This document shows, piece by piece, positions 690 through 52,640 of a DNA stretch of 64,000 nt. Every line of letters begins with the position of its first letter. Positions within the stretch are counted from its first letter, which is position 1. Position numbers and translations under genes: made by a program. Source of the stretch: Bacillota bacterium (GTDB lineage Bacteria; Bacillota; JAAYKD01); the NCBI GenBank assembly GCA_012522585.1, contig JAAYKD010000069.1, positions 1,602 to 65,601 on the forward strand. Direction: 5' to 3'. The notes below the pieces were generated by a model, which saw only the letters and a list, made by a program, of their open reading frames with translations, searched no databases and was not told where the DNA came from.

Positions 690-792
690 TCACGATGGCG
701 ACGATGTGCCAGCAGCTAAGATAGTCTTCTTTACTACCTTCTTATCCTTGATTACTATGCCCATCTTCATCTTAATCATGAACAAGCTTTAG
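588..792 (+). repeat. Two tandem copies (about 100 bp each, about 90% identical) of the 3'-terminal coding segment of the AEC transporter. Copy 2 (691-792) lies immediately after the stop codon and keeps its own stop.
   Basis: Direct comparison of 588-689 with 691-792 (cacgatggcgacgatgtgccagcagctaag...catcttaatcatgaacaagctttag). Confidence 0.85.
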
Positions 793-1164: not shown

Positions 1165-1302
1165 ATGGAGCACAAAACACCTTTATACGACTGCCATCTT
1201 ACAGCTGGAGCCAAAGCCACACCCTTTAGAGGCTATTTGCTCAAGGTTAAAATAGGAAAAGAAGACTTGATCGGTAACAAGGCACTTCCCCTAAAGAGCT
1301 GA
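1165..1302 (+). pseudogene. gcvT: Remnant of the 5' end of gcvT (aminomethyltransferase): 45 codons, then a stop
   Basis: The translation MEHKTPLYDCHLTAGAKATPFRGY.. matches the GcvT N-terminal motif (K/R-TPLYD-H...GAK...F-G), then diverges and terminates. It is preceded by a GA-rich RBS. Confidence 0.5.
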
Positions 1303-1422: not shown

Positions 1423-2820
1423 ATGCAAAATGAATTCGATCTTGCGGTAATTGGTGCAGGGCCTGGGGGCTATGTAGCTGCCATTAGAGGAGCTCAGTCA
1501 GGCATGAAGGTTGCACTCATTGAAGAAAGAGAAATTGGTGGCACTTGTTTAAACAGAGGATGCGTTCCCACCAAAGCGCTGATGCATTCCGCCAATCTTT
1601 ACCGCCAAATTAGCCGTAGCGATCTCTTCGGTATTGAAGCCACAGACCTAAAATACGATATGGAAAAAATCTATTCACGAAAAGACGAGGTTGTATCAAA
1701 GTTACGCAGTGGAGTTGAGTTTCTCATATCAGCTAATCAAATTGAAATCATCAGAAGCAGAGGCCTGGTTACAGACCAAAACACAATAAAAACAAAGGAC
1801 AGAGAGATTAAAGCTAAGAATATACTCATTGCCACCGGTTCCTCTCCTGCTCGACCTCCTATTCCGGGCTTGGATTTACCAGGGGTCATGACCAGCGATG
1901 AATTACTGAATCAGCAGCAAGGACCCGGCTGCCAAAGTCTCATCATCATCGGCGGAGGCGTTATAGGCATGGAATTCGCCGGAATATTTTCATCTTTCGG
2001 TTGCAAAGTCACCGTCATTGAGGCGATGGACCGTATTTTGTCAACCATGGATAGAGAAATCGCTCAAAATTTGAGTATGATCATGAGGAGGCGGGGTGTA
2101 ACTATAAATACGAGGGCAAGGGTAAACAAAATCGAGCAAACAGAAGAGGGCTTGATCTGCCATTATACCCAAAAAGAAACCTCTAAAGTTGCTGAAGCAC
2201 AAGCAGTGCTCGTGGCCATCGGGCGAAAACCAAATGTTGATGGATTATTCTCAGAAAACCTCAATATAAAGACTGAACGGGGAATCGTTGTTAACGAGCA
2301 TTTCCAAACCAACATCCCTGGTATCTATGCCATTGGAGATGTTATTTCTGATGGCATCCAGCTGGCTCATCTGGCTTCAGCACAAGGAATAACCGCTGTA
2401 TCTCATATGATAGGCAATCCTTCCCCCGTCGACCTCAACACAATACCCTCCTGCATCTACACTGAACCGGAAATTGCCTCTGTGGGTCTTTCTGCAGACC
2501 AAGCCAAGGCCCAAGGGCTTTCAATTAAAACAGGGAAATTCCCTATGTCGGGCAATGCAAAATCAATCATCGAAGATGAAGACCGAGGTTTTATCAAACT
2601 AGTCTTTGATAGTGAAACAGAGGTAATCCTCGGTGCACAAATGATGTGCGGCAGAGCTACCGATTTAATCAGCGAAATGTCAACAGCCATCGTCGCCAAG
2701 CTTACCTTGGCCGACCTAGGCTCCGTGATTCGACCTCATCCCACCTTTATCGAAGGGATCAGCGAAGCCTTAGATGGCACTCATGGCAAAGCCATTCATA
2801 TTGCACCTAGAAACCGCTAA
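1423..2820 (+). CDS. lpdA: Dihydrolipoyl dehydrogenase (E3/L-protein)
   Basis: FAD-binding GAGPGGYVAA, redox-disulfide CLNRGCVPTK, NAD site GGGVIGMEFAG, and a C-terminal dimerisation HPT motif. RBS AAGGAG upstream. Confidence 0.93.
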   Translation: MQNEFDLAVIGAGPGGYVAAIRGAQSGMKVALIEEREIGGTCLNRGCVPTKALMHSANLYRQISRSDLFGIEATDLKYDMEKIYSRKDEVVSKLRSGVEFLISANQIEIIRSRGLVTDQNTIKTKDREIKAKNILIATGSSPARPPIPGLDLPGVMTSDELLNQQQGPGCQSLIIIGGGVIGMEFAGIFSSFGCKVTVIEAMDRILSTMDREIAQNLSMIMRRRGVTINTRARVNKIEQTEEGLICHYTQKETSKVAEAQAVLVAIGRKPNVDGLFSENLNIKTERGIVVNEHFQTNIPGIYAIGDVISDGIQLAHLASAQGITAVSHMIGNPSPVDLNTIPSCIYTEPEIASVGLSADQAKAQGLSIKTGKFPMSGNAKSIIEDEDRGFIKLVFDSETEVILGAQMMCGRATDLISEMSTAIVAKLTLADLGSVIRPHPTFIEGISEALDGTHGKAIHIAPRNR

Positions 2821-3046: not shown

Positions 3047-5398
3047 TTATTCTTCTTGAGCAGTTCGAGCGATGATCTCCTCTTGATGGTATTTATCCAA
3101 ATTAACGAAATAATCGCTGTAACCGGCTACTCTGACTAAAAGATCTTTATATTCGGCTGGGTTCTGCTGGGCTTTTCTCAGTGTCTCAGTGTCCACCACA
3201 TTGAATTGGATGTGGTGACCGCCTAAACGAAAATAGGTTCTAATCAAGGCAGCCAATTTTTTCAAACCCTGCTCCCCTGCTAGAGTCGAAGGCATGAAGC
3301 GTTGATTGAGCAAGGTGCCTCCGGAGTAACTTTGATCCATTTTAGCCAAGGATTTAATCACTGCTGTGGGACCATTGCGATCAGCGCCGTGAGAAGGTGA
3401 AGTCCCATCTGATTCCGGCAGATGAGCCAAACGACCATTGGCGCTTGCTCCCAGCATTTTGCCAAAATAAACATGACAGGTTGTGGAGAGCATATTCAGA
3501 TGATAGGTGGGCCCTTTAGTGCTATGGCGCCCTTCAATATTATCTAAAAGGGATTGATAGACCCTTTGCATAATTTTATCGGCCCGATCATCATCGTTGC
3601 CATAGAAGGGTGTCTGATTGAGCAATTTTTGTCGCAGCGGCTCATGACCTTGGAAATTATCACTCAAGGCTTGTAGCAATTGCTCCAGCGGGACAGTCTT
3701 TTCATCATAGACATGGGTCTTGATAGCTGAAAGGCTGTCCGTCACCGTTCCTATACCGCAGCATTGAATATAGGTCGTATTATATTTAGGACCTCCGTCG
3801 TAGTAATCTTTGCCACTTTCAATACAGCCTTCGATGACCACGGAGAGGAAAGGAGCCGGAGCATATTTTCTGAACATATGTTCTAAATAGTTGTTGACTC
3901 TGATCTTGGTGTCGACGACGAAACTCAATTGCTTTTGGAAAGCTGCGTAGAGATCATCGAAACTTTCAAAATCTCGGCCCGTGCTCAAGCCGATTTTTTT
4001 ACCGCTCAAGGGGTCAACTCCATCGTTTAAAGTCAATTCCAAAACTTTAGGCACGTTGAGATAGCCGGTCAACAAATAGGCTTCCTTGCCGAAACAGCCT
4101 GTCTCGATACAGCCACTGTTTCCCCCTTCTCTGGCATCCTCAACGCTTTTGCCTGAGCGTACCTGTTCCATGATGACCATATCCGTATTGAAAACGGAAG
4201 GATAACCATAGCCCTTGCGGATAATGGCAGCTGCTTCTAGGAGGAATTTTTCCGGAGTTTTTGCGCTGATCTGAACATTACACTGAGGCTGCAATAAGTG
4301 AAGCTCATCGAAAACTTCCAACAAGAGATATGAGACTTCACTGACTCCATCACTGCCATCTCTTTGCAGGCCACCAATATTGATATTGACGAAATCATTA
4401 TAGGTTCCGCTTTCCAAGGCGGTCACACCGACTTTGGGTGGGGCCGGATGGTTGTTGAATTTTATCCATAAACAGCTCAAGAGCTCCTTAGCTTGATTTC
4501 TGGTCAAGGTGTTGGCAGCCAGTTCTCTAAAATAAAAGGGTGCTAAATGCTGATCTAAATGACCTGGGCTCATAGAATCCCAGCCGTTCAATTCCATGAT
4601 GGTGCCTAAATGGACAAACCAGTACATTTGAAGAGCATCATGAAAACTCTGGGGAGCTTGAGCCGGAATGCGGCGACAGCGCTCAGCTATATCCAACAAT
4701 TCGGCTTTACGCTCAGGGTTATCTTCCTCTTGGGCCAATGCTTGGGCTTTTTCAGCATGTCTTTGACCATAGCGAATCAGTGCCTGAGCGGAAATCATCA
4801 TAGCTTTATATTGCTCATTTTTATTGCCCGCTTCAGGGTCCTTGAGCCAGTCCAATTGGCTTTGCCGTTCTTTTATTTGCTCAATGAAATCGTCCATACC
4901 GTAAAGATAGATTCTACCGTCTAAGGCAGTATGTCCGGGAGCCCTTTGCTCCATAAATTCAGTGAACAAACCTGCTTCGTAGAGGTTCTTCCAAGTATCA
5001 TCGATTTCGGCAAAAGCTTTATCCCGCATACTGCGCCCCCGCCAATAAGGAATCACTTCTTTTTCATAGATCAGCTTATCCTCCGAACTGATCTTGTAGC
5101 CTGCCATCTCCCTCGTATCCAAAACATCTAGATCCTCTAGAGTATGACAAGTCAATTCCGGAAAAGAAGGGACGACTGCGGGAGCATTTCCTCTTTCCCC
5201 TACGATCAATTCCCCTTGACCGATATAGATTTCTTTCTGATCGCAGAAATGATAAAAATTCTTGGCTCGCATGACGGGAACCGAATATTTACCATCATTC
5301 TCTCGATAAAATTCTGTGACCAGCTTGGCCCTTTCCGCACTGAATTTTACAACAGCCTCTCGACTCTCTTGACGCAATCTGGCAACTCGTTCAGTCAT
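3047..5398 (-). CDS. Glycyl-radical enzyme of the PFL2/DhaB-like eliminase family (glycerol dehydratase / HypD / CutC-like). Substrate unassigned.
   Basis: C-terminal glycyl-radical motif RVAGYSDYF. Active-site thiyl-Cys/Glu motif GCIETG. WFVHLGTIMELNGWDSMSPG and FMEQRAPGH blocks resemble C. butyricum glycerol dehydratase. The likely true start is the second ATG (MTERV..), which has AGGAGG 7 nt upstream; the listed ORF begins 6 codons earlier. Confidence 0.85.
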   Translation of the reverse strand: MTERVARLRQESREAVVKFSAERAKLVTEFYRENDGKYSVPVMRAKNFYHFCDQKEIYIGQGELIVGERGNAPAVVPSFPELTCHTLEDLDVLDTREMAGYKISSEDKLIYEKEVIPYWRGRSMRDKAFAEIDDTWKNLYEAGLFTEFMEQRAPGHTALDGRIYLYGMDDFIEQIKERQSQLDWLKDPEAGNKNEQYKAMMISAQALIRYGQRHAEKAQALAQEEDNPERKAELLDIAERCRRIPAQAPQSFHDALQMYWFVHLGTIMELNGWDSMSPGHLDQHLAPFYFRELAANTLTRNQAKELLSCLWIKFNNHPAPPKVGVTALESGTYNDFVNINIGGLQRDGSDGVSEVSYLLLEVFDELHLLQPQCNVQISAKTPEKFLLEAAAIIRKGYGYPSVFNTDMVIMEQVRSGKSVEDAREGGNSGCIETGCFGKEAYLLTGYLNVPKVLELTLNDGVDPLSGKKIGLSTGRDFESFDDLYAAFQKQLSFVVDTKIRVNNYLEHMFRKYAPAPFLSVVIEGCIESGKDYYDGGPKYNTTYIQCCGIGTVTDSLSAIKTHVYDEKTVPLEQLLQALSDNFQGHEPLRQKLLNQTPFYGNDDDRADKIMQRVYQSLLDNIEGRHSTKGPTYHLNMLSTTCHVYFGKMLGASANGRLAHLPESDGTSPSHGADRNGPTAVIKSLAKMDQSYSGGTLLNQRFMPSTLAGEQGLKKLAALIRTYFRLGGHHIQFNVVDTETLRKAQQNPAEYKDLLVRVAGYSDYFVNLDKYHQEEIIARTAQEE

Positions 5399-5412
5399 TT
5401 TATTCCTCCTGA

Positions 5413-6291
5413 TCATTCTATGTTTCTTCGGGCTTCGAGACCACCGGCTCTTAAATAGTCTATGGCTCGGTCCATCTCAGATTCCGTTGGTGTTTCAATA
5501 TGGGGTAATTTATATTCTCGGTTCAATTTTTCATATTTGTTGATCTGCATATGGTGATAGGGCAATAGCTCCAGGGGCCAAGGATTTTCAAACTGCTTAA
5601 AAAAATCGATAATCCTATCGAGATTTTTTTTAGAATCGTTGATTCCCGGTATCAAAGGCATTCGAACAATACCGGCATAACCTGCTCTGATCAAATTGGC
5701 CAAGTTATTTAGAATCAGAGTGTTGTCAACACCTGTATACTTCTCATGTTCTCGGCCAGCCATATGTTTCAAATCGTAGAGAAATAGATCAATATGAGGA
5801 GCCAAGTCTGCTAAGATTGGCCAAGGGCTGTAGCCCGATGTATCCAAAGTTCGATGGATACCCTCCTGGCCTGACAATTTGAGCAACTCCAACAGAAATT
5901 CCGGTTGACTTAAAGGCTCACCACCGGAGAATGTAACTCCGCCACCTGATTCATCATAAAAGAGTCGATCCTTTAAAATGATCTCGTGAACTTCTTGAGC
6001 CCTTTTAGTTTCACCGACCCAAACCCGAGCTTGAGTCAAACAAGCATCAACACAAAGCCCGCAGAGCAAGCAATTTGCACTTTGCTCTAAGCCTTGGGGG
6101 CAAACTTCCAGACAGCGACGACAATCGATACACAGTTCTTCTTGCCAAAGAATCTCTTTAGAAAAACCTTGGCTTTCAGGATTGTGACACCACCAACAAT
6201 TCAAAGGACAGCCTTTGAAAAAAACCGTGGTGCGAATACCCGGACCGTCCTCGATACTGTAGCGCCTAATATTAAAAATGGTACCTTCCAT
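5413..6291 (-). CDS. Glycyl-radical enzyme activating enzyme (radical SAM, with two extra ferredoxin-like Cys clusters)
   Basis: CPLNCWWCHNPE (CX3CX2C) near the N-terminus. CIDCRRCLEVCP and CLLCGLCVDAC clusters. GGEP SAM motif. The stop overlaps the GRE start region. Confidence 0.9.
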   Translation of the reverse strand: MEGTIFNIRRYSIEDGPGIRTTVFFKGCPLNCWWCHNPESQGFSKEILWQEELCIDCRRCLEVCPQGLEQSANCLLCGLCVDACLTQARVWVGETKRAQEVHEIILKDRLFYDESGGGVTFSGGEPLSQPEFLLELLKLSGQEGIHRTLDTSGYSPWPILADLAPHIDLFLYDLKHMAGREHEKYTGVDNTLILNNLANLIRAGYAGIVRMPLIPGINDSKKNLDRIIDFFKQFENPWPLELLPYHHMQINKYEKLNREYKLPHIETPTESEMDRAIDYLRAGGLEARRNIE

Positions 6292-6424
6292 GCTTCTTTT
6301 CCTTCACTATTTATTAGTCTTATCTTTCGCCATAGACTAAAAATTTCCTGCTAGAGAACAATAAAGGAATGCTTGCCAGACAAAGCGAACTTTTTAAAAA
6401 ACAAGGACAAAGGGGTTAAAAGCA

Positions 6425-7054
6425 ATGACAGATTTAGCAGCGCTCTTTAAAATTTCATATGGACTTTACTTGATTGGAGCTAAAAAAGAGAATAAAGAAA
6501 ATGCATGTATCAACAATACCTTGATTCAAATCACCTCGGAGCCTCTGCGTCTCTTGCTGGCCATGAACAAAGGGTCATACACTCACGATCTGGTCAAAGC
6601 AACAGGGCAATTATCCGTTGCTGTCATTGATCAAAGAGCTGATATGAGTTTCTTCAACCATTTTGGAACTAAAAGCGGCAGGGATATTGATAAGCTAGAG
6701 GGTTTCCCCGTCCTCTTCTGCTCCAATGGTTGCCCCAGTGTTGAAGGCAACATCTGTGCTCTTTTTGCAGGTGAGGTTGAGCAGACTATTGATGTGGGCA
6801 GCCACAGCCTCTTCATCATCGCTGTCCAAGAAGCAGCAATCAAAAGCGATTACGAACCCATCACCTATGCTCAGTATCGCAATTTAAAGAACACAGGCAG
6901 CATTGAAATCATCAAGACAGAAAAAAAGGAATACAAATACATCTGCACTGTCTGTCATTACGAGTATGACGGGGATATTCCCTTCGAAGACCTGCCCGAT
7001 GATTATAAATGCCCGATCTGTGGGGTGGGCAAGGAATTGTTCATCAAAGTTTGA
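6425..7054 (+). CDS. Flavin reductase-like domain fused to a C-terminal rubredoxin domain
   Basis: N-terminal flavin-reductase-like fold ([12 protein letters not shown]..). C-terminal [10 protein letters not shown]...[10 protein letters not shown] is a canonical rubredoxin CxxC...CxxC. Confidence 0.75.
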
Positions 7055-7062
7055 TTGAAAAC

Positions 7063-7099
7063 AAAAAAACCGAGCCGATTAATCCGGCTCGGTTTTTTT
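7063..7099. terminator. Bidirectional intrinsic terminator between the convergent rubredoxin-fusion and ilvE genes
   Basis: AAAAAAACCGAGCCGATTAATCCGGCTCGGTTTTTTT. Confidence 0.8.
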
Positions 7100-7110
7100 A
7101 AACTAGTCTT

Positions 7111-8233: not shown

Positions 8234-10750
8234 CTATTTTACTTTCATCAAGGCATTGAAGAAGGGTTTGTAAGTGCCGTCTGTCTGAGCTCTGTATTGA
8301 GCGTGATAGCCCAGAAGGACTACATCACCTTGACCATATTCAACATGCATAGCAGCTGCTTTTCCGGCAATTAATTCTTCACCGTAGAGCAAACCGCTTT
8401 GTAAAATTTCTCTTTCCGGATAGCTGGCTAAAACTGTGTAATTTTGAGCCTTAGCTGTATCGGTGATGATATAAGCAGGACTGCTGAAGTTCAAGGTTAA
8501 GCCTAACTCAGGCATACCCCAATTGATGGGATGATCTGCATGTTCGGTGCGTAAAGTGGCTCCCTGGGTGAAAAACTCATCCATGGATTTTCCTTCAACA
8601 ACATTAGTCAAGCCTAACTCTAAAGCTTCCACTGCCCAATCACAAGAACCTGCTTGAGCTACCAAACGTCCGCCAGCTTCAACAAATTCCTTTAAAGCTG
8701 CAACTCCTTCAGCCTTTAAACCGCTCATATAACCTTCAGGCACGGTTCCGATAAAGCGACGCATCCTGGAGAAAGCGGGATCTTTGGTGATATCGGTGAG
8801 CATGCCTTTGCGATCGGCAGGAATAAAGATAACATCGTATTTGTCGATTAAATTGCCCTTTTGAACTTCTTCATCCATGATGTTGACGTAAGGGAATTCA
8901 AATTGTTCTAAGACCAAACGAGTCCAACCTTCGTCCATAGAGCCGCCTAGATAGCGCTTATAAAGAGCCAGACGCTTTGCTTCGTAGGGAATAATTTCAG
9001 CTTCGGCTAAGGGGCCTTCGAAGGGTACTATATCAATACCCAGCTCTTGGCCGCCGGCTTTTAAGATTTCCTGACCTTGGGCTTCGGCAACAAAATCGCC
9101 GCAGCAACGGGTTCGCCAGACCTTAATACCTTGAGCTAAGAGACGATTGGCTAAACGGAAAGAAGCATTGAGATTTCCACCAAAGACATAGGCTTCATGC
9201 TGATTGGCTTCTTCAAAAATTGCCTGCATGGGGGGAACTTCGGTCAGAAGTTTTGTTTTGCCCTCAATTGGATCTTCAGCTTCTATGATGTAAACACCCA
9301 TATACTCGCCGTAAGTATCGGTGGTGGTATCATAGATATTAGAAGCATTATTGAAGCGACGGCTGAACCAGTTATCATTGAAGAATGTTCTGGCTAAGAG
9401 GGTGCGAATAGCTGCTCTCTTGGGCTGAGACGCGTAAATAACGATGGAACCTTCAGGGGCTGTTTCACAACCGCTTGAGACGCATTCTTCGGCAATATGC
9501 AACTCGAAGCCCTGTTGTTCTAAAACTTTAATCAATTTATAAGCCGTAACCGGATCGTTTTGCAGATCAGCAGGAATGATGAAGCCATAAGGCTTTTCCA
9601 TTTCGCCCAGTTCGGTCTGTCTTTGTGCCTTCTTAATGGCATTGCGCAGGATGATATCCTTGTTTCGAGCTGCACAATCTAAGAGTGCCCAAGAAGTAAT
9701 CTTTTGTTGCTCGACGATATCTCTCAAGGTCCACCAGCCACCGGGCCAAGGATGAACAAAATCAACCTGTTGTTGGTGTACCGGGAAAGTGCGATCATTA
9801 GCACCTTGCAATTGCTCCGGAGCAATGTAGATCGGGCTTGCCGTCTTGACATTGGCCGATTCAGTCAACATACCGGCAATATTATGGTGATTGGTAAACC
9901 AGTGGAAGCCCATATGGCCCCAAGCAGGGAATTGACCTCCGCTTAAGATGCCTCTTTTCCCTTCCTCTTCCAGGCGATAACCCATGTGAGCTCCATACAT
10001 GCGCAGCTCACTCCAGACTAATGGGTCCGGATTGGGATGAATGGGGTCACTATAGGGGGAAATGTAAAGGCGAGCACCATAAGAGCCGAAATGATGATGA
10101 TCTTGGAAAGCATGGGGATTCCATTTTTGGAACATGATTTCTCCCACATAGCGAGATTCGATCAAGTTCCAAGCAAAAGCATCGCGATTGTTGTCGTGAC
10201 CACAATACTTATGATAGAGCCAAGGCAAACCTGCTCCTTCATATTCTGTGCCCAAATATTTGTTATACCAGTCGGTGACCATGATTTGGCCATCCGGGTT
10301 AAAACAAGGAACTATGATGGAAATAGTTTCATCTAAAATTCTTAAACCCTCTTCACTCTCAGTAGTCAAGAGATCATAGACCAGCTCAGGCGCCATTTGG
10401 GTGCCTCCAACCTCGCTGGCGTGCAAGCTCATAGTCTGAACTACTATGGCTTTGCCTTCCTTAACCAGTTCATCTAAGCGTTCTTCTTCAATTCCACGAG
10501 GATCAGTAATCTGCTTGTTGATCAGCCTTAATTCTTCTAGCCTAGCTAAGTTTTCAGGGGAAGATATATAGGCTACTAAAAATGGATGTCCCTCAGTTGA
10601 AGGTCCCATATTTTCGAGGATCATGCGGTCGCTCTCTTTGGCTAAGAGCTCCAAATAGTCGACGATCTTTTCCCATCTGACCAGCTTACGATCCTCTCCC
10701 AGTTGGTGACCAAAATAACTAATTGGAGATGTGACTTTGACTTGACTCAT
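8234..10750 (-). CDS. Large M14-family metallocarboxypeptidase-like protein (about 838 aa)
   Basis: M14 signatures HASE (HxxE zinc site), NPDG, and D-NNRD-F resembling the NRNF motif. The ORF track begins at GTG. An ATG with AAAGGAG RBS (MSQVKV..) is the likelier start. Confidence 0.6.
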   Translation of the reverse strand: MSQVKVTSPISYFGHQLGEDRKLVRWEKIVDYLELLAKESDRMILENMGPSTEGHPFLVAYISSPENLARLEELRLINKQITDPRGIEEERLDELVKEGKAIVVQTMSLHASEVGGTQMAPELVYDLLTTESEEGLRILDETISIIVPCFNPDGQIMVTDWYNKYLGTEYEGAGLPWLYHKYCGHDNNRDAFAWNLIESRYVGEIMFQKWNPHAFQDHHHFGSYGARLYISPYSDPIHPNPDPLVWSELRMYGAHMGYRLEEEGKRGILSGGQFPAWGHMGFHWFTNHHNIAGMLTESANVKTASPIYIAPEQLQGANDRTFPVHQQQVDFVHPWPGGWWTLRDIVEQQKITSWALLDCAARNKDIILRNAIKKAQRQTELGEMEKPYGFIIPADLQNDPVTAYKLIKVLEQQGFELHIAEECVSSGCETAPEGSIVIYASQPKRAAIRTLLARTFFNDNWFSRRFNNASNIYDTTTDTYGEYMGVYIIEAEDPIEGKTKLLTEVPPMQAIFEEANQHEAYVFGGNLNASFRLANRLLAQGIKVWRTRCCGDFVAEAQGQEILKAGGQELGIDIVPFEGPLAEAEIIPYEAKRLALYKRYLGGSMDEGWTRLVLEQFEFPYVNIMDEEVQKGNLIDKYDVIFIPADRKGMLTDITKDPAFSRMRRFIGTVPEGYMSGLKAEGVAALKEFVEAGGRLVAQAGSCDWAVEALELGLTNVVEGKSMDEFFTQGATLRTEHADHPINWGMPELGLTLNFSSPAYIITDTAKAQNYTVLASYPEREILQSGLLYGEELIAGKAAAMHVEYGQGDVVLLGYHAQYRAQTDGTYKPFFNALMKVK

Positions 10751-10931
10751 ATATTCCACTCCTTTGTTTTTTATGGTAAGCTAAAGAACTTACCGGTCTC
10801 TTATATTAATTGGCAATTGCCATGTAAAAATCCTTCTATTGACGGAATAATTTTTCTATTCTAACTTAAAAATTGCTAAAAGGAAGGTGCAGCCTGAAAA
10901 GCGAATCTATCCTTAAGTAAAAGGAGCTGGC

Positions 10932-28195: not shown

Positions 28196-29734
28196 CTAGT
28201 ATTCAGGGCTTTGATCTTTCTTTTTGATAATGGTATCAATGCGTAAAATTGCTTCAGCTACCTCACCGGCAGCTTTTAAAGCGTGTAATTTTACTAAAGT
28301 CGGATCTAAAATACCCTGCAAACTCAAATCTTTAACTTCGCCGCTATCGCAATCAATTGTGAGATTTTCATTTTTCTCTTCAGATTGAGCAGCTAAAACT
28401 TCTTCGATCTTCTCTAAAGGATTATATCCAGCATTATGGATAATTTGAGCTAAGGGACGTTTTAAAGCTTCTACCACAATATCCAAACCATAGGCAGACA
28501 TGCCTTTGAGTTGGTCTCTCAAGGGAGCTATGTGCCGAGCTGTGGCGATTTCCACTGCTCCACCTCCGCTGACCACTCCACCTTTGACCGCAGCCTGCAC
28601 AGCTGAAGCTGCATCCCGAGCGATTCTTTCTCGCTCTCCGACCACGGCTGATGTGGAAGCACCTACCAGAATAGTAGCTGTCTTCTGCCCTTGTCCTCCC
28701 AAAATTCGGAGATAACCCAATTTTTTATCATGAATAACCGAATCCGCTTGGCCTAAAAGACCCTTTAACTCAGTCAACTCTCTTTTTAAAGCATTTCTTT
28801 TAATGGGTTTGGCTCCGCTATGTTCTGCTATTTGACGCAGACTGCGCCTCAAGACCCTGGTCACTACCATGATACCAGCATCTGTCAAAACCTCCTCAGC
28901 TAAAGGATGGAGATTTTTATCAGTTAAAATGAGGTCAACTTCCAATTGGAGAATTCTTTCCAGCATCTGCTTAAACTCATTCTGCAATTCCATATAGCGG
29001 GCAAAGCCACTTTCGGTTGTCAGGGCCTCATCGTCTATTTCCTCAGGCTCTAGTGCGTCATCGATTAAAAGTATGCGAGCCTTTTCCACTTTTTCCGGCA
29101 TATCCTTGTTTAAAGGCTCTTTCTCTAAGATGATGCCAGCAAACACCTCGTTTTCTGCACCCTCTTTGGCCAAAATCAATTGGGAGAGTTTAAAATCTTC
29201 TTCTTCCAATTTTTCTTTTCCAACCAAAAGTGCTGCTTGCACAGTCAGATCGGCAATGTCTTCATGTTCACGACCGGCTACCAGAGCTATTTGTTTTAAA
29301 ATCTTCTCATCTAAAGTGAGCATAGCTTGACTGGATTGAGTGATATAACTCCTAGCCTCTTGCAGGCCAAAGCGCATACCATCGATAATTCGAGCCACCG
29401 GAACGCCCCGGTAGACATGTTCAGCACCTGCTGAAATCAAGGCATTGGCCATAATGGTGGCTGTGGTCGTGCCGTCGCCAATCTCCTCCTGTTGGGCTTT
29501 AGCAACATTGATTAAAAGCTGAGCTGCCGGATGAGTCACATCCATTTTTTCTAAAATGGTCACGCCGGCGTTGGTGATCAAAACATCGCCGTAGCGATCA
29601 ACCAGCATGGTATCCAAGCCTTTGGGACCAATAGTCCCTTCTACAGCCGCTGCAACAGCTCTGATCGCCGCCGCATTGTTGGCCAAGGCTCCGCTTCTCT
29701 CATCCATTTCTCGATTGGGTGCACTATTTGCCAT
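28196..29734 (-). CDS. Group II (thermosome/CCT-type) chaperonin subunit, 512 aa, embedded in the hrcA operon
   Basis: TCP-1/thermosome signatures LGPKGLDTMLVD, GDGTTTA (rather than GroEL-type motifs), and an apical/equatorial domain layout. AAGGAG RBS. Only 14 bp separate it from the hrcA stop. Confidence 0.8.
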   Translation of the reverse strand: MANSAPNREMDERSGALANNAAAIRAVAAAVEGTIGPKGLDTMLVDRYGDVLITNAGVTILEKMDVTHPAAQLLINVAKAQQEEIGDGTTTATIMANALISAGAEHVYRGVPVARIIDGMRFGLQEARSYITQSSQAMLTLDEKILKQIALVAGREHEDIADLTVQAALLVGKEKLEEEDFKLSQLILAKEGAENEVFAGIILEKEPLNKDMPEKVEKARILLIDDALEPEEIDDEALTTESGFARYMELQNEFKQMLERILQLEVDLILTDKNLHPLAEEVLTDAGIMVVTRVLRRSLRQIAEHSGAKPIKRNALKRELTELKGLLGQADSVIHDKKLGYLRILGGQGQKTATILVGASTSAVVGERERIARDAASAVQAAVKGGVVSGGGAVEIATARHIAPLRDQLKGMSAYGLDIVVEALKRPLAQIIHNAGYNPLEKIEEVLAAQSEEKNENLTIDCDSGEVKDLSLQGILDPTLVKLHALKAAGEVAEAILRIDTIIKKKDQSPEY

Positions 29735-42270: not shown

Positions 42271-43149
42271 ATGGCAAAAATTGCATGGATTGGAACCGGC
42301 GTCATGGGAGCTTCCATGGCAGGTCATTTGAGCCAAGAAGGCCATGAACTTTTTTTATTCAACCGCACCCACACCAAAGCTGTTAAGGTAGCGGAACAAA
42401 TCAAAGCTAAGGCCTTTGACACAATAGCCGAAACTGTCAAGGATGCAGATTTCATCTTCACCATTGTCGGTTACCCTCATGATGTGGAAGAAGTGATGCT
42501 GAAACCTCAAGGTGTTTTCGATTCAGCCAAAAAAGGGTCCTTGATCATCGATATGACCACCTCATTGCCTTCCCTAGCGGTAAAACTCTACCAAATCGGT
42601 CAAGAAAGAGGTTTGAAACTCTTGGACGCACCTGTTTCAGGGGGCGATTCAGGAGCCCGCAACGGGACACTATCCATCATGGTAGGAGGAGATCAAGAAG
42701 ATTTCAAAACTGCCCTGCCTCTTTTTGAAGCGATGGGCCAAAACATAGTTCACATGGGAGTGGCTGGCAATGGTCAACATACTAAAGCCGCCAACCAAAT
42801 TGCCGTCGCCGGAGCAACTGCTGCCATGACAGAAGCAATCGTTTACTCTAAAAAAGTTGGTTTGGAGCCGGAAGCTATGCTCAAGGCTATTGGAGCCGGA
42901 GCGGCAGGCAGCTGGCAATTACAGAATATGGCTCCCAGAGTCCTGCAAAAGGATTTTGACCCTGGCTTTTTCGTCAAACACTTCATCAAGGATATGAAAA
43001 TTGTCAATGAGGAAATGGAAGAGCGAGATACTCATTTAGAAATGCTCAATACTGTTTTGAATCTCTATCTGAAGATGGCTGAAGCCGGTTTCGAAGACGA
43101 CGGTACTCAAGCCTTGATTAAGCTCTACGAAGAACAATCGAGCTGCTAA
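42271..43149 (+). CDS. 3-hydroxyisobutyrate dehydrogenase / 2-hydroxy-3-oxopropionate reductase family NAD(P)-dependent oxidoreductase
   Basis: Rossmann motif WIGTGVMGASMAGHL. HIBADH-family catalytic Lys region. Confidence 0.8.
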   Translation: MAKIAWIGTGVMGASMAGHLSQEGHELFLFNRTHTKAVKVAEQIKAKAFDTIAETVKDADFIFTIVGYPHDVEEVMLKPQGVFDSAKKGSLIIDMTTSLPSLAVKLYQIGQERGLKLLDAPVSGGDSGARNGTLSIMVGGDQEDFKTALPLFEAMGQNIVHMGVAGNGQHTKAANQIAVAGATAAMTEAIVYSKKVGLEPEAMLKAIGAGAAGSWQLQNMAPRVLQKDFDPGFFVKHFIKDMKIVNEEMEERDTHLEMLNTVLNLYLKMAEAGFEDDGTQALIKLYEEQSSC

Positions 43150-48118: not shown

Positions 48119-49294
48119 ATGCAGTATCAAGGTTTAGTCATCTCTGTACCTAAGGAGATTATGCCTGGTGAAAAACGTGTTGCAGCGACACCGGAAACAG
48201 TCAAAAAACTCGTGTCCCAAGGAGCCACCCTATTAGTAGAAGAAAGTGCAGGTTTAGGTTCTTATTTTTCTGATGCAGAATATGTGGAAGCCGGTGCTAC
48301 TATTGTCGGTGATGTAGAAGAATTATTCTCCAAAGCCAATATCATATTCAAAGTAAAAGAGCCTCAATTCAACCATCAGGTAGGAAAACATGAAGTGGAT
48401 CTGATGAAAGCGGAGCAAGTTCTGATAACCTTCTTACATCCAGCAGCTCCTGCCAACCACGAAATGATTCAAAATTTGACGGCTAAAGGTGTAACGGCTT
48501 TGACTTTAGATGGAATACCTCGTATTTCCAGAGCCCAAGCTATGGACGCTTTGACTTCCATGAGCACTGTTGCCGGCTATAAATCAGTCTTGATGGCAGC
48601 TAACCGAGTACCAAAATTCCTGCCCATGATCGGCACTGCCATCGGTATGATGCCACCGGCCAATGTAACTGTCTTAGGAGCAGGAGTTGCCGGTTTACAG
48701 GCTATCGCCACAGCTAAACGCTTAGGCGCCGTGGTCTATGCTGCAGATATCCGACCGGAAGCTGCCGAGCATGCTAAGAGCCTAGGAGCAAGAATCGTGG
48801 AAACTGGTGTTCCGGCCGAAATTGCTATCGGTGAAGGTGGCTATGCCAAAGCCCTGCCCCAAGAATGGATTGTCAAAGAGCAAACTGCTCTCTACGATAC
48901 CATCATCAATTCAGATATCGTCATAGCAACTGCTTTAGTTCCCGGAAGAATGGCTCCCACCTTAATTACCGAAGAGATGGTCAAAGCCATGAAACCCGGC
49001 TCAGCCATCGTCGACGTTTCCATTGACCAAGGAGGCAACTGTGCTCTGACAGTGGGCGGCGAATTAATCGAACGCCACGGCATCAGCATCGACGGAACTA
49101 AGAATATTCCCGGTATGGTAGCCACCAGTGCAACCAGTATGTTCTCTAAAAATATAGTCAACTTTGTTGCCAATATCGTCAAAGACGGAAAGATTATCAT
49201 CGACACAAACGATGAAATTACCGATTCTACCCTGGTCTGTCAAAATGGAAAACTGGTTCACGCCGGTACCCGTGAGGCTTTAGGCCTTAATTAA
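48119..49294 (+). CDS. pntAA: NAD(P) transhydrogenase subunit alpha part 1 (dI, NAD(H)-binding)
   Basis: Alanine-dehydrogenase-like dI fold with GAGVAGLQA Rossmann motif and the N-terminal PKEIMPGEKRVAATPE signature. Confidence 0.92.
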   Translation: MQYQGLVISVPKEIMPGEKRVAATPETVKKLVSQGATLLVEESAGLGSYFSDAEYVEAGATIVGDVEELFSKANIIFKVKEPQFNHQVGKHEVDLMKAEQVLITFLHPAAPANHEMIQNLTAKGVTALTLDGIPRISRAQAMDALTSMSTVAGYKSVLMAANRVPKFLPMIGTAIGMMPPANVTVLGAGVAGLQAIATAKRLGAVVYAADIRPEAAEHAKSLGARIVETGVPAEIAIGEGGYAKALPQEWIVKEQTALYDTIINSDIVIATALVPGRMAPTLITEEMVKAMKPGSAIVDVSIDQGGNCALTVGGELIERHGISIDGTKNIPGMVATSATSMFSKNIVNFVANIVKDGKIIIDTNDEITDSTLVCQNGKLVHAGTREALGLN

Positions 49295-49607: not shown

Positions 49608-52600
49608 ATGGAACCGATTTATATCATTATCTCTATCGTTTTAGCAGCTCTCGTTCTTCTCGGCATCAAACTCATGAGTTCTCCCAAAACAGCCGTCCAA
49701 GGTAATTTAATCAGCGCCTTCAGTATGTTGGCGGCAGTAATTTTGGTGCTTTGGACTAACAATATTTTAAGTCTCCCTCTATTGTGGGCAGCAATAGCCA
49801 TCGGAAGTATAATCGGCTATGTTCTGGGTATGAAAGTCACCATGATTCAAATGCCTCAGGTTGTTGCTCTTTTAAACGGATTGGGAGGCGGAGCTTCCCT
49901 TTTAGTTGCAGCAGCTGAAATTCTCAGCAACTTTAATCAAATGGACGCTTTTAGTAAAGTGAGCGGTCAATTGGCTTTAATCGTCGGTGGTATCACCCTC
50001 TCAGGCAGCATGATTGCAGCAGCCAAGTTGGACAGAAGGATGAGTCAACGTCCCGTAGTCCTCAAAGGCCACAATATTTTAGCCAACGGTAGTTTGGTCA
50101 TCATGATTGTTGCCACTTTTCTCACCTTATTGGACAATTCACCTTATATTTTCTTATCCTTCCTGATTTTAATACTATCCCTAGCCTATGGTTATCTTTT
50201 CTCTGTCCGAGTAGGCGGAGCTGATATGCCTATCACCATCAGTTTGTTAAACTCCTTTTCCGGATTAGCAGGAGCAATAGTTGGTTTTACCATAGGTGAG
50301 CCACTTTTGGTTGCAGTCGGTGCCATTGTCGGAGCCTCGGGTCTGATTTTGACTCAAATCATGTGTAAAGCCATGAATCGCTCCTTAGGCAGTGTCTTAA
50401 GCGGAGGCACCTCCAAACCGAGTAGCAAACCCAAGGTCGTGCCTGCGAAAGTGGAAGAGCCCGTTTTAACAGAGCCCATAAAAGAAGAAGTTGCTAAAAG
50501 TTTAGGGGATTTATTAAAAGAAGCCCAACGAGTCATCATCATACCAGGCTATGGCATGGCCTTGGCTCAGGCTCAAAATGAAGTAAAAGCCCTGACCGAT
50601 GCACTCATCGCCCAGGGTAAACAGGTAGAATTCGCTATACACCCCGTAGCCGGACGGATGCCCGGACATATGAATGTCCTTTTAGCAGAGGTTGATGTTC
50701 CCTACGAATTGATGCGAGAGATGGACGATATCAATCCTCTCTTTGCCGAAACGGATGTAGCCATCGTGGTTGGATCTTGTGACGTTGTCAATCCAGCCGC
50801 CAACACAGCCGAAGATACCCCCATCTACGGAATGCCTGTTCTTTCCGTAGAAAACGCCAAACATGTAATCGTTTGCAATTTAGATACAAACCCTGGCTAT
50901 TCTGGCGTAGACAATCCTCTCTATGAGATGGAACATGTCAGACTCCTTTTGGGAGATGCCAAAGCAACTCTCAAGCAATTACTGGCTGAATTTAAAGAGG
51001 AAAAGAAATCTGAGCCCCAGGAGATCGAAGAAGAAAAAACTCCAAGCTCTCCTTCCTATTTAGAACTATTGCACCAAGGAGAAAAAGTTATCTTCGTTCC
51101 CGGATACGGTATGGCCTTAGCCCAAGCCCAATCATTGGTCAAACAGTTGGCTGATGCTTTGGAAGAAAAAGGCAAAGAGGTCAAATTTGCCATCCACCCT
51201 GTAGCCGGACGAATGCCCGGTCACATGAATGTGCTCTTAGCAGAAACGGATGTGCCTTACGATAAACTTTGGGAAATGGACGATATCAATCCTCTCTTCC
51301 CGGAAACCGATATAGTCATCATCGTTGGTGCCAATGACGTAGTCAACCCGGCAGCCAACACTGCAGAAGACACACCCATCTACGGTATGCCCGTCTTATC
51401 AGTTGAAAATGCCAAACATGTAATTGTCTGTAACTTAGATAAAAGCCCTGGCTATTCCGGCGTAGATAATCCTTTATACGAAATGGATAATGTGACTCTG
51501 CTTTTAGGCGACGCTAAAGAGAGCCTGACTCAACTGATCGACCAGTTTAAACAAGGACCTATAGCCAAAGAGCCGGAGCCTCTAGCTCAAGGAACAGACA
51601 CTCTAACCACTGTTCTGGCTAAACCTGAAAGAGTCATCATCGTGCCTGGATATGGCATGGCTTTAGCCCAAGCTCAAACCCAGGTCAAGGAGATTTATGA
51701 AACCTTGGAGGCCAAGGGAACAGAAGTGGAATTTGCCATTCACCCAGTGGCAGGACGGATGCCCGGACATATGAATGTGCTCTTAGCAGAAGTCGATATT
51801 CCTTATGAAAAATTGAGAGAAATGGATGATATCAACCCTCTCTTCCCGGAAACAGATCTGGTCATCATTGTGGGCGCCAATGACGTAGTCAACCCGGCAG
51901 CCAACACAGCTGAGGACACACCCATTTACGGCATGCCCATTCTCAATGTAGATCAAGCTAAGCATATTGTGGTTTGCAATTTGGATCAAAGCCCAGGTTA
52001 TTCCGGTGTGGATAACCCCCTATACGAGATGGACAATGTCACTCTTTTGTTGGGCGATGCCAAGGACAGCCTGAATAAAATACTGGATATCTTCAAGGCA
52101 GAACCCTCAGCAGCCCCAGAAGCAGAACCAACTTCAGTAGCTCAAACTTCAGTCTTAGCCGCAGCTAAAAAGGTCATCATCGTACCAGGCTATGGCATGG
52201 CTTTAGCTCAGGCTCAAACTCTAGTCAAAAGTGTTTACGATGCCCTAGAAGCCAAGGGTGCAGAGGTGGAATTCGCCATCCACCCGGTGGCAGGACGCAT
52301 GCACGGCCACATGAACGTTCTCTTAGCAGAAGTCGATGTTCCTTACGAAAAACTGAGAGAGATGGACGATATCAACCCTCTCTTCCCGGAAACCGACGTG
52401 GTCATCGTAGTGGGCGCCAATGACGTAGTCAACCCGGCGGCCAATACAGCCGAGGACACACCTATTTATGGGATGCCCATCTTAAATGTAGACCAAGCCA
52501 AACACATCATAGTCTGCAACTTGGATAGGAGCCCAGGTTATTCCGGCGTAGACAACCCCCTATACGATATGGAGAATGTGACTTTGCTTCTAGGTGATGC

Positions 52601-52640
52601 CAAAGCATCTTTAGAAATCCTTCTCGAAGAATTGAAATAA
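49608..52640 (+). CDS. pntB: NAD(P) transhydrogenase subunit beta carrying four tandem dIII (NADP(H)-binding) domains (1010 aa)
   Basis: Residues 1 to about 290 form the multi-TM dII domain. They are followed by four repeats of about 180 aa, each with PGYGMALAQAQ, AIHPVAGRMPGHMNVLLAE, GANDVVNPAANTAEDTPIYGMP and NPLYEM. Confidence 0.9.
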   Translation: MEPIYIIISIVLAALVLLGIKLMSSPKTAVQGNLISAFSMLAAVILVLWTNNILSLPLLWAAIAIGSIIGYVLGMKVTMIQMPQVVALLNGLGGGASLLVAAAEILSNFNQMDAFSKVSGQLALIVGGITLSGSMIAAAKLDRRMSQRPVVLKGHNILANGSLVIMIVATFLTLLDNSPYIFLSFLILILSLAYGYLFSVRVGGADMPITISLLNSFSGLAGAIVGFTIGEPLLVAVGAIVGASGLILTQIMCKAMNRSLGSVLSGGTSKPSSKPKVVPAKVEEPVLTEPIKEEVAKSLGDLLKEAQRVIIIPGYGMALAQAQNEVKALTDALIAQGKQVEFAIHPVAGRMPGHMNVLLAEVDVPYELMREMDDINPLFAETDVAIVVGSCDVVNPAANTAEDTPIYGMPVLSVENAKHVIVCNLDTNPGYSGVDNPLYEMEHVRLLLGDAKATLKQLLAEFKEEKKSEPQEIEEEKTPSSPSYLELLHQGEKVIFVPGYGMALAQAQSLVKQLADALEEKGKEVKFAIHPVAGRMPGHMNVLLAETDVPYDKLWEMDDINPLFPETDIVIIVGANDVVNPAANTAEDTPIYGMPVLSVENAKHVIVCNLDKSPGYSGVDNPLYEMDNVTLLLGDAKESLTQLIDQFKQGPIAKEPEPLAQGTDTLTTVLAKPERVIIVPGYGMALAQAQTQVKEIYETLEAKGTEVEFAIHPVAGRMPGHMNVLLAEVDIPYEKLREMDDINPLFPETDLVIIVGANDVVNPAANTAEDTPIYGMPILNVDQAKHIVVCNLDQSPGYSGVDNPLYEMDNVTLLLGDAKDSLNKILDIFKAEPSAAPEAEPTSVAQTSVLAAAKKVIIVPGYGMALAQAQTLVKSVYDALEAKGAEVEFAIHPVAGRMHGHMNVLLAEVDVPYEKLREMDDINPLFPETDVVIVVGANDVVNPAANTAEDTPIYGMPILNVDQAKHIIVCNLDRSPGYSGVDNPLYDMENVTLLLGDAKASLEILLEELK
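50526..52640 (+). repeat. Intragenic tandem repeat: four units of about 540-560 bp (starts about 50526, 51084, 51630, 52170), each encoding one dIII domain
   Basis: Self-alignment of the pntB sequence. Copies differ mainly at third-codon positions. Confidence 0.9.

Follow-up and report, generated by a model that had tools for sequence, protein, structure and literature searches.

A predicted HypD and activase operon beside a divergent Hrb-type rubredoxin gene in a Bacillota contig

The described systems closest to the locus analysed here are the trans-4-hydroxy-L-proline dehydratase (HypD) of C. difficile with its activase, HypD-AE, and the 'high molecular weight rubredoxin' (Hrb) of Moorella. 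The residues of C. difficile HypD used for comparison and their roles were taken from published work (PMC7077986). Among genomes with HypD, those with proC beside hypD are exceptions (PMC6219649). Moorella Hrb has a flavodiiron protein as its natural partner (PMC12288474). Among activases of glycyl radical enzymes (GREs), that of PFL receives its electrons in vivo from flavodoxin (PMC13450708).

We analysed a 64,000-nt stretch of contig JAAYKD010000069.1 (the window). Two ORFs on the minus strand encode the GRE (hypD, 3047-5416) and its activase (5413-6291), and an ORF on the plus strand (6425-7054) encodes a flavin-reductase/rubredoxin fusion. The fusion gene is divergent from the activase gene, with 133 nt between them. 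Coordinates of all features are listed in Table 1. The GRE size of 783-789 aa, the RVAGYSDYF and GCIETG motifs and the gene order given in the initial annotation were all reproduced by the ORFs and their translation. Pfam domains found in the GRE are PFL-like (E 7e-228) and Gly_radical (PF01228, E 1.5e-36). The ambiguity between 783 and 789 aa is genuine. The 783-aa form (3047-5398) is favoured because AGGAGG is located 6 nt ahead of the second ATG (5398) and the alignment with homologues begins at residue 7-8. In line with the initial annotation, the window ORFs scanned (those of at least 100 aa) include no pdu, eut or cut genes and no proline genes such as proC or prd. One ProC candidate, a 292-aa F420_oxidored match at 42271-43149, was rejected; tartronate-semialdehyde (2-hydroxy-3-oxopropionate) reductase models were closest to it, though it scored below their cut-offs.

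Table 1. Positions of genes, motifs and control elements at the predicted hypD locus (window coordinates).
Feature	Position	Strand	Remarks
hypD, trans-4-hydroxy-L-proline dehydratase (predicted)	3047..5398	-	783 aa from favoured ATG 5398; alternative ATG 5416 gives 789 aa
Glycyl radical motif RVAGYSDYF	3107..3133	-	Radical Gly765 (789-aa numbering) = Gly759 (783-aa numbering)
Cys loop GCIETG with CXE motif	4097..4114	-	Cys436, Glu438 (789-aa numbering)
HypD-specific substrate-binding and acid-base residues	4391..4957	-	F154, R158, H162, W279, D280, K328, S336, D341, F342
HypD residues beyond the stretch 4391..4957	4061-4063; 3482-3484	-	Y452; T645
HypD-activating enzyme (predicted), radical-SAM glycyl-radical activase	5413..6291	-	292 aa; TIGR02494; hypD adjacency
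Activase radical-SAM cluster motif CPLNCWWC	6187..6210	-	C28, C32, C35
Activase ferredoxin-like insert, two CX2CX2CX3C motifs	6040..6132	-	8 Cys, ligands of two predicted auxiliary [4Fe-4S] clusters
Activase-Hrb divergent control region	6292..6424	.	133 nt; short blocks conserved in four relatives
Hrb-type 'high molecular weight rubredoxin'	6425..7054	+	209 aa; PF01613 + PF00301
Hrb flavin-reductase domain	6449-6877	+	
Hrb C-terminal rubredoxin domain	6935-7042	+	
Bidirectional intrinsic terminator, Hrb (+) / branched-chain aminotransferase gene (-)	7062..7100	.	17-bp stem, A-run and T-run flanks

The GRE is predicted to be an ordinary HypD which, together with its activase, belongs to a known system. 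It matches the NCBIfam HypD equivalog model NF043068 with 1186 bits (cut-off 1100), while its scores with the next-best eliminase and other GRE equivalog models are far below their cut-offs. It shares 53% identity over 780 aa with C. difficile HypD (6VXC, 970 bits), compared with 412-485 bits for the structures of GDH, CutC, HpzG, HpyG and HplG. Membership in the classical PFL group was rejected, as PFL structures reach only about 100 bits (1H16, 103 bits); the earlier placement in the PFL2/eliminase group was thus correct. CutC, GDH, PD, HpsG/HpfG, IAD, HPAD, HpyG, HpzG and HplG were rejected as well, with equivalog scores far below cut-off and much lower PDB scores. In the alignment to 6VXC, all 14 catalytic and substrate-binding positions checked are kept. 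Gly765 of C. difficile HypD aligns with the radical glycine of RVAGYSDYF, Cys434 and Glu436 align with Cys436 and Glu438 of the GRE, and F152, R156, H160, W277, D278, K326, S334, D339, F340, Y450 and T645 are all identical. The sole difference, Val to Ile, lies at the X of the CXE motif. Ser334 of HypD is replaced by Phe in other eliminases; the window GRE carries Ser. An active-site alignment against characterised GREs had been proposed as a check for classical PFL membership; the alignment to 6VXC matched all the HypD residues, and the structure scores gave no such placement.

Some other substrate, for instance a different isomer of hydroxyproline, N-methyl-hydroxyproline (as for HplG, HpyG and HpzG), a diol or choline, might be suspected from the activase, which scores below the cut-off of the HypD-activase equivalog, and from the absence of proline-pathway genes nearby. 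We consider this extremely unlikely. The GRE passes the HypD equivalog model, and its 970 bits with HypD compare with 412-443 bits for HpzG (8IOF), HpyG (8ID1) and HplG (7VUA). The HypD-specific residues are identical without exception, Ser334, Asp278, Asp339, Phe340, Tyr450 and Thr645 (C. difficile numbering) among them. Moreover, the absence of proline genes near hypD is normal for HypD. The initial annotation held that the substrate cannot be deduced. This is correct for synteny, but the substrate is deducible from the equivalog score and the active-site residues.

The best model for the activase is the HypD-activase equivalog NF043069 (350.6 bits), yet this is below the cut-off of 425; the match to TIGR02494 (338 bits) exceeds the cut-off of 174. 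The protein was assigned as the putative HypD activase because its gene adjoins hypD, as an activase gene does in 78 of the 80 HypD loci examined in other genomes. Its radical-SAM motif has the spacing C28-X3-C32-X2-C35. The two CX2CX2CX3C motifs (C54, C57, C60, C64 and C74, C77, C80, C84) agree with the two auxiliary ferredoxin-type clusters reported earlier, which are predicted from sequence. The insert is 87 aa in length, whereas 59 of the 70 other HypD activases compared have one of 96 aa, and the stretch linking the two motifs is shorter than usual by about nine residues. The short insert is shared with one of the HypD loci (L001) and nearly so with a second (L002). Fourteen nt separate the end of the activase gene from the favoured hypD start, and the two minus-strand genes are predicted to form a two-gene operon with the activase first.

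We infer the reaction chemistry, where the activase obtains its electrons and what Hrb does, with the mechanism modelled by homology on C. difficile HypD (PMC7077986). The reduced radical-SAM [4Fe-4S] cluster of the activase would cleave S-adenosylmethionine, and the resulting 5'-deoxyadenosyl radical would take a hydrogen from Gly765 of HypD. The glycyl radical would in turn generate a thiyl radical on Cys436, which is expected to abstract a hydrogen at C5 of hydroxyproline. Loss of the C4 hydroxyl would be promoted by Asp280 with His162 and Glu438 (789-aa numbering). The predicted product is pyrroline-5-carboxylate, which may be reduced to proline or oxidized to glutamate by housekeeping enzymes encoded elsewhere. 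Since a standard HypD system is present, the window's organism, a peptide-fermenting Firmicute from anaerobic digesters, can probably dehydrate hydroxyproline derived from collagen.

The fusion protein consists of a Flavin_Reduct domain (residues 9-151, E 1.7e-25) and a rubredoxin domain (residues 171-206) with the CxxC...CxxC arrangement. The rubredoxin cysteines C174, C177, C196 and C199 are invariant across an alignment of 25 sequences, and the flavin domain matches PDB 1I0R (E 2e-26). Full-length homologues include Moorella-group proteins with about 37-42% identity. Two of them, from Neomoorella humiferrea (P0104, UniRef name 'High molecular weight rubredoxin') and Moorella naiadis (P0120, named 'flavin reductase'), match at E ~1e-38 with 99% coverage. 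The fusion gene is an ordinary member of the widespread Hrb family, a common oxidative-stress family. Electrons from NAD(P)H would normally be passed by such proteins to iron proteins that detoxify oxygen, peroxide or NO.

Four relatives share the short blocks TTCG.CA, TCCTGC, AAGGA.T and AAAG.GAA.T in the intergenic region between the activase and Hrb genes. These blocks could be a shared operator of the two genes. No consensus RNA fold was found for the 133-nt region, and no PerR or Rex boxes were found in it. A search of the hypD/activase/Hrb region against Rfam gave no match at the gathering score; the sole E-value match was the terminator hairpin. A scan for sigma-70 consensus sites returned fewer promoter-like matches than were found in shuffled sequences, hence it was uninformative. 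Hrb is predicted to be a separate, divergent and monocistronic transcription unit with its own bidirectional terminator.

The initial annotation had regarded the fusion as a plausible dedicated electron donor of the activase, and had named an unrelated transcription unit or regulon as evidence against that role. The gene organization indicates a divergent unit of its own that is closed by a terminator, which partly corresponds to such evidence; as to a shared regulon, the conserved intergenic blocks were observed. If Hrb did serve the HypD activase in vivo as its dedicated electron donor, electrons from NAD(P)H would pass via FMN and the rubredoxin iron to the activase clusters. The divergent genes with a common control region carrying conserved blocks are consistent with this role, and adjacency is kept by Hrb homologues of 68, 56 and 55% identity. 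In these loci, however, the surrounding genes are also kept: the 68% locus has lpd and gcvT, and the 56% and 55% loci have the M14 peptidase and aminotransferase genes. The Hrb gene of the 56% relative overlaps a gene for a phosphoribosyltransferase that lies downstream. Hrb homologues of 44% identity occur in unrelated contexts; one has a hybrid-cluster protein and a regulator of the CRP type as neighbours. Of the 80 HypD loci taken from other genomes, a single one has Hrb next to HypD, and there the entire syntenic block is shared; conversely, a GRE or activase gene was found in none of 80 metagenomic loci of Hrb homologues. In every case the adjacency comes with conservation of the entire neighbourhood and so carries no independent signal. 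The family context of oxidative stress and the known flavodiiron partner also argue against a donor role, as does the separate transcription unit. Radical-SAM clusters usually receive electrons from flavodoxin or ferredoxin, and their 2+/1+ couple lies hundreds of mV below the potentials at which rubredoxin-type centres and NAD(P)H-linked flavin reductases operate. We judge a dedicated donor highly unlikely. Hrb beside HypD is very likely inherited synteny of one narrow Firmicutes lineage and not a functional pairing.

Clustering of the ORFs in the 80 HypD loci showed that the activase alone recurs (spurious antisense ORF clusters from high-GC genomes were disregarded). Minority neighbours are histidine kinases, ABC ATPases, GntR regulators, aminotransferases and Isf-like proteins. 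The Isf-like FMN reductases, Fe-S flavoproteins unrelated to Hrb, adjoin the activase in HypD loci of Desulfobulbales and Thermotogaceae. They might be a non-orthologous equivalent of Hrb if the latter were an activase reductant, and with cases in two other lineages, a flavoprotein beside the activase could conceivably be a recurring theme.

Glycyl radicals are destroyed by O2. Hrb may then be a co-regulated protector: with the help of a partner whose gene lies elsewhere, it would scavenge O2, peroxide or NO and shield the glycyl radical. Genes for rubrerythrin, desulfoferrodoxin, Fur-family (PerR-type) regulators, AhpC or SOD are present in 22 of the 80 metagenomic Hrb loci, and the conserved blocks in the shared intergenic region would fit co-regulation. 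Against this, Hrb and HypD show no independent co-occurrence, the intergenic region has no PerR-like or Rex-like box, and neither a flavodiiron, rubrerythrin or desulfoferrodoxin gene nor any other obvious Hrb partner gene was found in the window. Protection of this kind is highly improbable. The broader proposal that Hrb was recruited in this Firmicutes lineage as an NAD(P)H-linked HypD helper, either as activase reductant or as co-regulated oxygen scavenger, with the Isf-like proteins as analogous cases, is in our view very improbable.

The locus is very likely an activase-hypD operon for anaerobic use of trans-4-hydroxy-L-proline plus an independent Hrb gene, whose adjacency would reflect lineage synteny. 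Its significance beyond correct annotation is slight. To our knowledge, few glycyl-radical activases have an established physiological reductant, so that an Hrb-activase pairing would be of interest if proven; the comparative evidence argues against it.

Comparison with Moorella thermoacetica Hrb, which reduces the flavodiiron protein FprA with electrons from NAD(P)H, shows the same order of an N-terminal flavin reductase and a C-terminal [Fe(SCys)4] rubredoxin. The identity to the Neomoorella humiferrea and Moorella naiadis proteins (see above) extends over the full length. The window Hrb is smaller (209 versus ~229 aa); its two domains are joined by a shorter linker, and its rubredoxin is minimal, with no loop insertion. 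It also has no flavodiiron, rubrerythrin or desulfoferrodoxin gene nearby. Glycerol dehydratase, propanediol dehydratase, CutC, HpyG, HpzG, HplG and IslA resemble the window system in fold, CXE Cys loop, RVxG motif and an activase with auxiliary clusters. However, the window GRE scores less than half of HypD's bits against these other GRE eliminases and isomerases, and falls below their equivalog cut-offs. C. difficile and many Clostridia have an adjacent proC, which the window locus lacks, and the window activase differs from C. difficile HypD-AE in an insert nine residues shorter and a score below the HypD-activase equivalog cut-off. Shared with C. difficile HypD/HypD-AE (6VXC, 6VXE), at 53% full-length identity, are the Gly and Cys loops, identical hydroxyproline-binding and acid-base residues, and an immediately adjacent activase gene whose product carries two auxiliary-cluster motifs.

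On sequence grounds, the glycyl radical enzyme (GRE) is firmly assigned to the trans-4-hydroxy-L-proline dehydratase (HypD) family, and its gene and that of its activase form an ordinary HypD/HypD-activase operon. The three ORFs (GRE, activase and a divergent fusion gene) lie exactly where the initial annotation placed them, and the two motifs it named, RVAGYSDYF and GCIETG, are both present in the GRE translation. The GRE matches the Pfam PFL-like (E 7e-228) and Gly_radical (E 1.5e-36) domains and scores 1186 bits (cut-off 1100) on the NCBIfam trans-4-hydroxy-L-proline dehydratase equivalog NF043068. The scores on the models for sulfopropanediol dehydratase, CutC, PflD-type enzymes, indoleacetate decarboxylase, hydroxyphenylacetate decarboxylase and PFL were far under their cut-offs. 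The minus-strand sequence around the GRE start codons (gaATGatcAGGAGGaataaaATGact) contains a perfect Shine-Dalgarno sequence 6 nt ahead of the second ATG. Alignments of homologues and the HypD model begin at GRE residue 7-8. The 783-aa form is favoured over 789 aa as the predicted product; with this form, the gap from the activase stop to the hypD start is 14 nt.

Coordinates of the features discussed (window coordinates unless a related locus is named)
Feature	Position	Strand	Basis or remark
GRE (hypD)	3047-5416, favoured start 5398 (second ATG)	minus	motifs, Pfam, NF043068
HypD activase	5413-6291	minus	CX3CX2C and two CX2CX2CX3C motifs, TIGR02494
Ferredoxin-like insert of activase	6040-6132	minus	two CX2CX2CX3C motifs only 9 residues apart
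Flavin-reductase/rubredoxin fusion (Hrb)	6425-7054	plus	Flavin_Reduct domain, C-terminal rubredoxin, CxxC...CxxC; divergent from activase
Activase/Hrb divergent region	6292-6424; L085 5854-6000; L088 3408-3587; L001 4916-5115		conserved blocks
Isf-like flavoproteins	L006 4262-4837; L007 4220-4828; L058 4522-5097; L050 377-1033		Pfam FMN_red, N-terminal Cys cluster
Phosphoribosyltransferase	L087 3926-4531; L088 4172-4777		overlaps Hrb 3' end by 46 nt
AEC transporter 3' end duplication	588-688 and 691-791		101 nt, 91% identity
Tandem glycine riboswitch	882-1097	plus	Rfam RF00504, 58.9 + 40.5 bits
45-aa ORF	1165-1302		resembles GcvT pieces
Dihydrolipoyl dehydrogenase (lpd)	1423-2820		
M14 carboxypeptidase-domain protein	8234-10759	minus	841 aa, domain N-terminal
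Chaperonin	28196-29734	minus	512 aa
AlaDh/PNT alpha-like gene	48119-49294		
PNTB protein	49608-52640	plus	1010 aa

The activase carries the radical-SAM motif C28-X3-C32-X2-C35 in addition to its two auxiliary motifs, and with 338 bits it clears the 174-bit cut-off of TIGR02494, the general GRE-activase model. Of the models it matches the HypD-activase equivalog best, yet the score is under the cut-off (351 vs 425 bits), in part because the ferredoxin-like insert is shorter. The distance from the radical-SAM motif to the GGE motif is 87 residues, compared with 96 in 59 of the 70 other HypD activases; eight out of eight auxiliary Cys are kept. The short insert is common to the two closest Clostridia relatives (L001, and nearly so L002). 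An activase adjoins hypD in 78 of 80 related loci.

By its sequence, the fusion protein is an ordinary, typical member of the high molecular weight rubredoxin (Hrb) family. The family is very large (1136 matches at E 0.001 or better) and its members carry the source names "flavin reductase" or "High molecular weight rubredoxin". Full-length identity of the fusion protein to Moorella-group proteins is 37-42%, and the flavin domain resembles PDB entry 1I0R (E 2e-26), a deposition labelled conserved hypothetical protein. Moorella Hrb has been described as an FMN/[Fe(SCys)4] dehydrogenase that depends on NADPH and has a flavodiiron protein for its natural partner (PMC12288474).

The initial annotation proposed the fusion protein as a plausible dedicated electron donor for the activase, which we consider improbable. 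The transcription unit speaks in part against it: in the window Hrb is monocistronic and divergent from the activase-hypD operon, with its own hairpin terminator (17-bp stem, A- and T-run on the flanks) that also serves the convergent aminotransferase gene. In general, rubredoxin centres and hydride-accepting flavin reductases have a potential far above that needed for reducing a radical-SAM cluster. The in vivo reductant of PFL activase is flavodoxin (PMC13450708). Among 80 HypD loci from GTDB species-representative genomes of several phyla, judged by record titles (62-81% identity to the window HypD), an Hrb homologue is present only in the closest relative, L001, which also retains the M14 peptidase and branched-chain aminotransferase (BCAT) genes in unchanged order. 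Conversely, GRE or activase was found in 0 of 80 further metagenomic Hrb-homologue loci (32-42% identity; 56 at 3.6 kb or longer); 22 of these 80 contain rubrerythrin, desulfoferrodoxin, a Fur-family (PerR-type) regulator, AhpC/TSA peroxiredoxin or Fe/Mn SOD. A dedicated pairing of Hrb with the HypD activase is not supported.

Loci with Hrb proteins at 100%, 68% and 56% identity retain the block M14-BCAT-(PRT)-Hrb<>AE-HypD-Lpd-GcvT (PRT, phosphoribosyltransferase; AE, activase), and the Hrb-HypD adjacency, kept along with it, is therefore inseparable from general synteny. In the 56% relatives (L087 and L088) the phosphoribosyltransferase overlap indicates a different co-transcription partner for Hrb; unlike these loci, the window has no phosphoribosyltransferase gene at the Hrb 3' end. 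Hrb homologues at 44% identity occur in unrelated contexts, one adjoining a hybrid-cluster protein and a CRP-type regulator. A link between Hrb and the activase would be favoured by the 133-nt divergent region, in which short blocks (TTCG.CA, TCCTGC, AAGGA.T and AAAG.GAA.T) are kept among four relatives, with TCCT and AGGA as the arms of an imperfect inverted repeat. These blocks might act as promoters or as a common operator, and no RNA fold, Rfam match, PerR box or Rex box was found in the region. Isf-like Fe-S flavoproteins (FMN_red), unrelated to Hrb, adjoin the HypD activase in Desulfobulbales loci L006 and L007, and one lies 28 nt upstream of the activase on the same strand in Thermotogaceae locus L050. 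In a further locus (L058) it lies beside hypD and no activase was detected. These cases would also favour a flavoprotein donor, but they represent two or three independent events in 80 loci, not clearly above chance since the genes are common.

The window is part of a Firmicutes MAG from anaerobic-digester metagenomes, and its other genes include those for urocanase, serine dehydratase, an Opp-type peptide transporter, an M42 aminopeptidase and an AlaDh/PNT-domain protein, either alanine dehydrogenase or a transhydrogenase alpha subunit. This gene content fits an amino-acid/peptide fermenter, and use of collagen-derived hydroxyproline is possible. The tandem glycine riboswitch lies upstream of lpd with only the 45-aa ORF in between; in the relative with 68% identical Hrb (L085), lpd is preceded by a complete gcvT, so most of gcvT has apparently been deleted in the window. 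The duplication at the AEC-family transporter gene repeats its last ~26 codons in tandem just beyond the stop. The M14-domain protein belongs to no NCBIfam family, and in all close relatives its gene stays in synteny with those for the aminotransferase, Hrb and HypD. The chaperonin gene is located between hrcA and grpE-dnaK-dnaJ. The product matches archaeal thermosome models best (304 bits, under the cut-off) and not GroEL, and we take it to be like the archaeal-like chaperonins reported in bacterial dnaK operons. The 1010-aa protein matches PNTB in four stretches, and its residues 10-460 cover a full PntB. It is apparently a transhydrogenase beta subunit in doubled form, and its gene lies downstream of the AlaDh/PNT alpha-like gene.

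The top solved-structure match of the GRE is C. difficile HypD (6VXC/6VXE, 970 bits), with 53% identity across 780 residues; glycerol dehydratase scores 485 bits, CutC about 444-466, HpzG (8IOF) 443, HplG (7VUA) 414, HpyG (8ID1) 412 and PFL 103. Catalytic and substrate-binding positions listed in the HypD structure paper (PMC7077986) were transferred by pairwise alignment to C. difficile HypD. Phe152, Arg156, His160, Trp277, Asp278, Lys326, Ser334, Asp339, Phe340, Cys434, Glu436, Tyr450, Thr645 and Gly765 (C. difficile numbering) are identical in the window GRE, and the sole change in the CXE motif is the middle residue (Val to Ile). The structure scores place the GRE in the eliminase group, in line with the initial annotation, and not with classical PFL. 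The same annotation held the substrate to be not deducible from synteny, but the sequence gives it through these residues and the NF043068 match; the lack of proline genes near hypD is not informative on this point. HypD is told apart from other eliminases at Ser334, Asp278 and Asp339.
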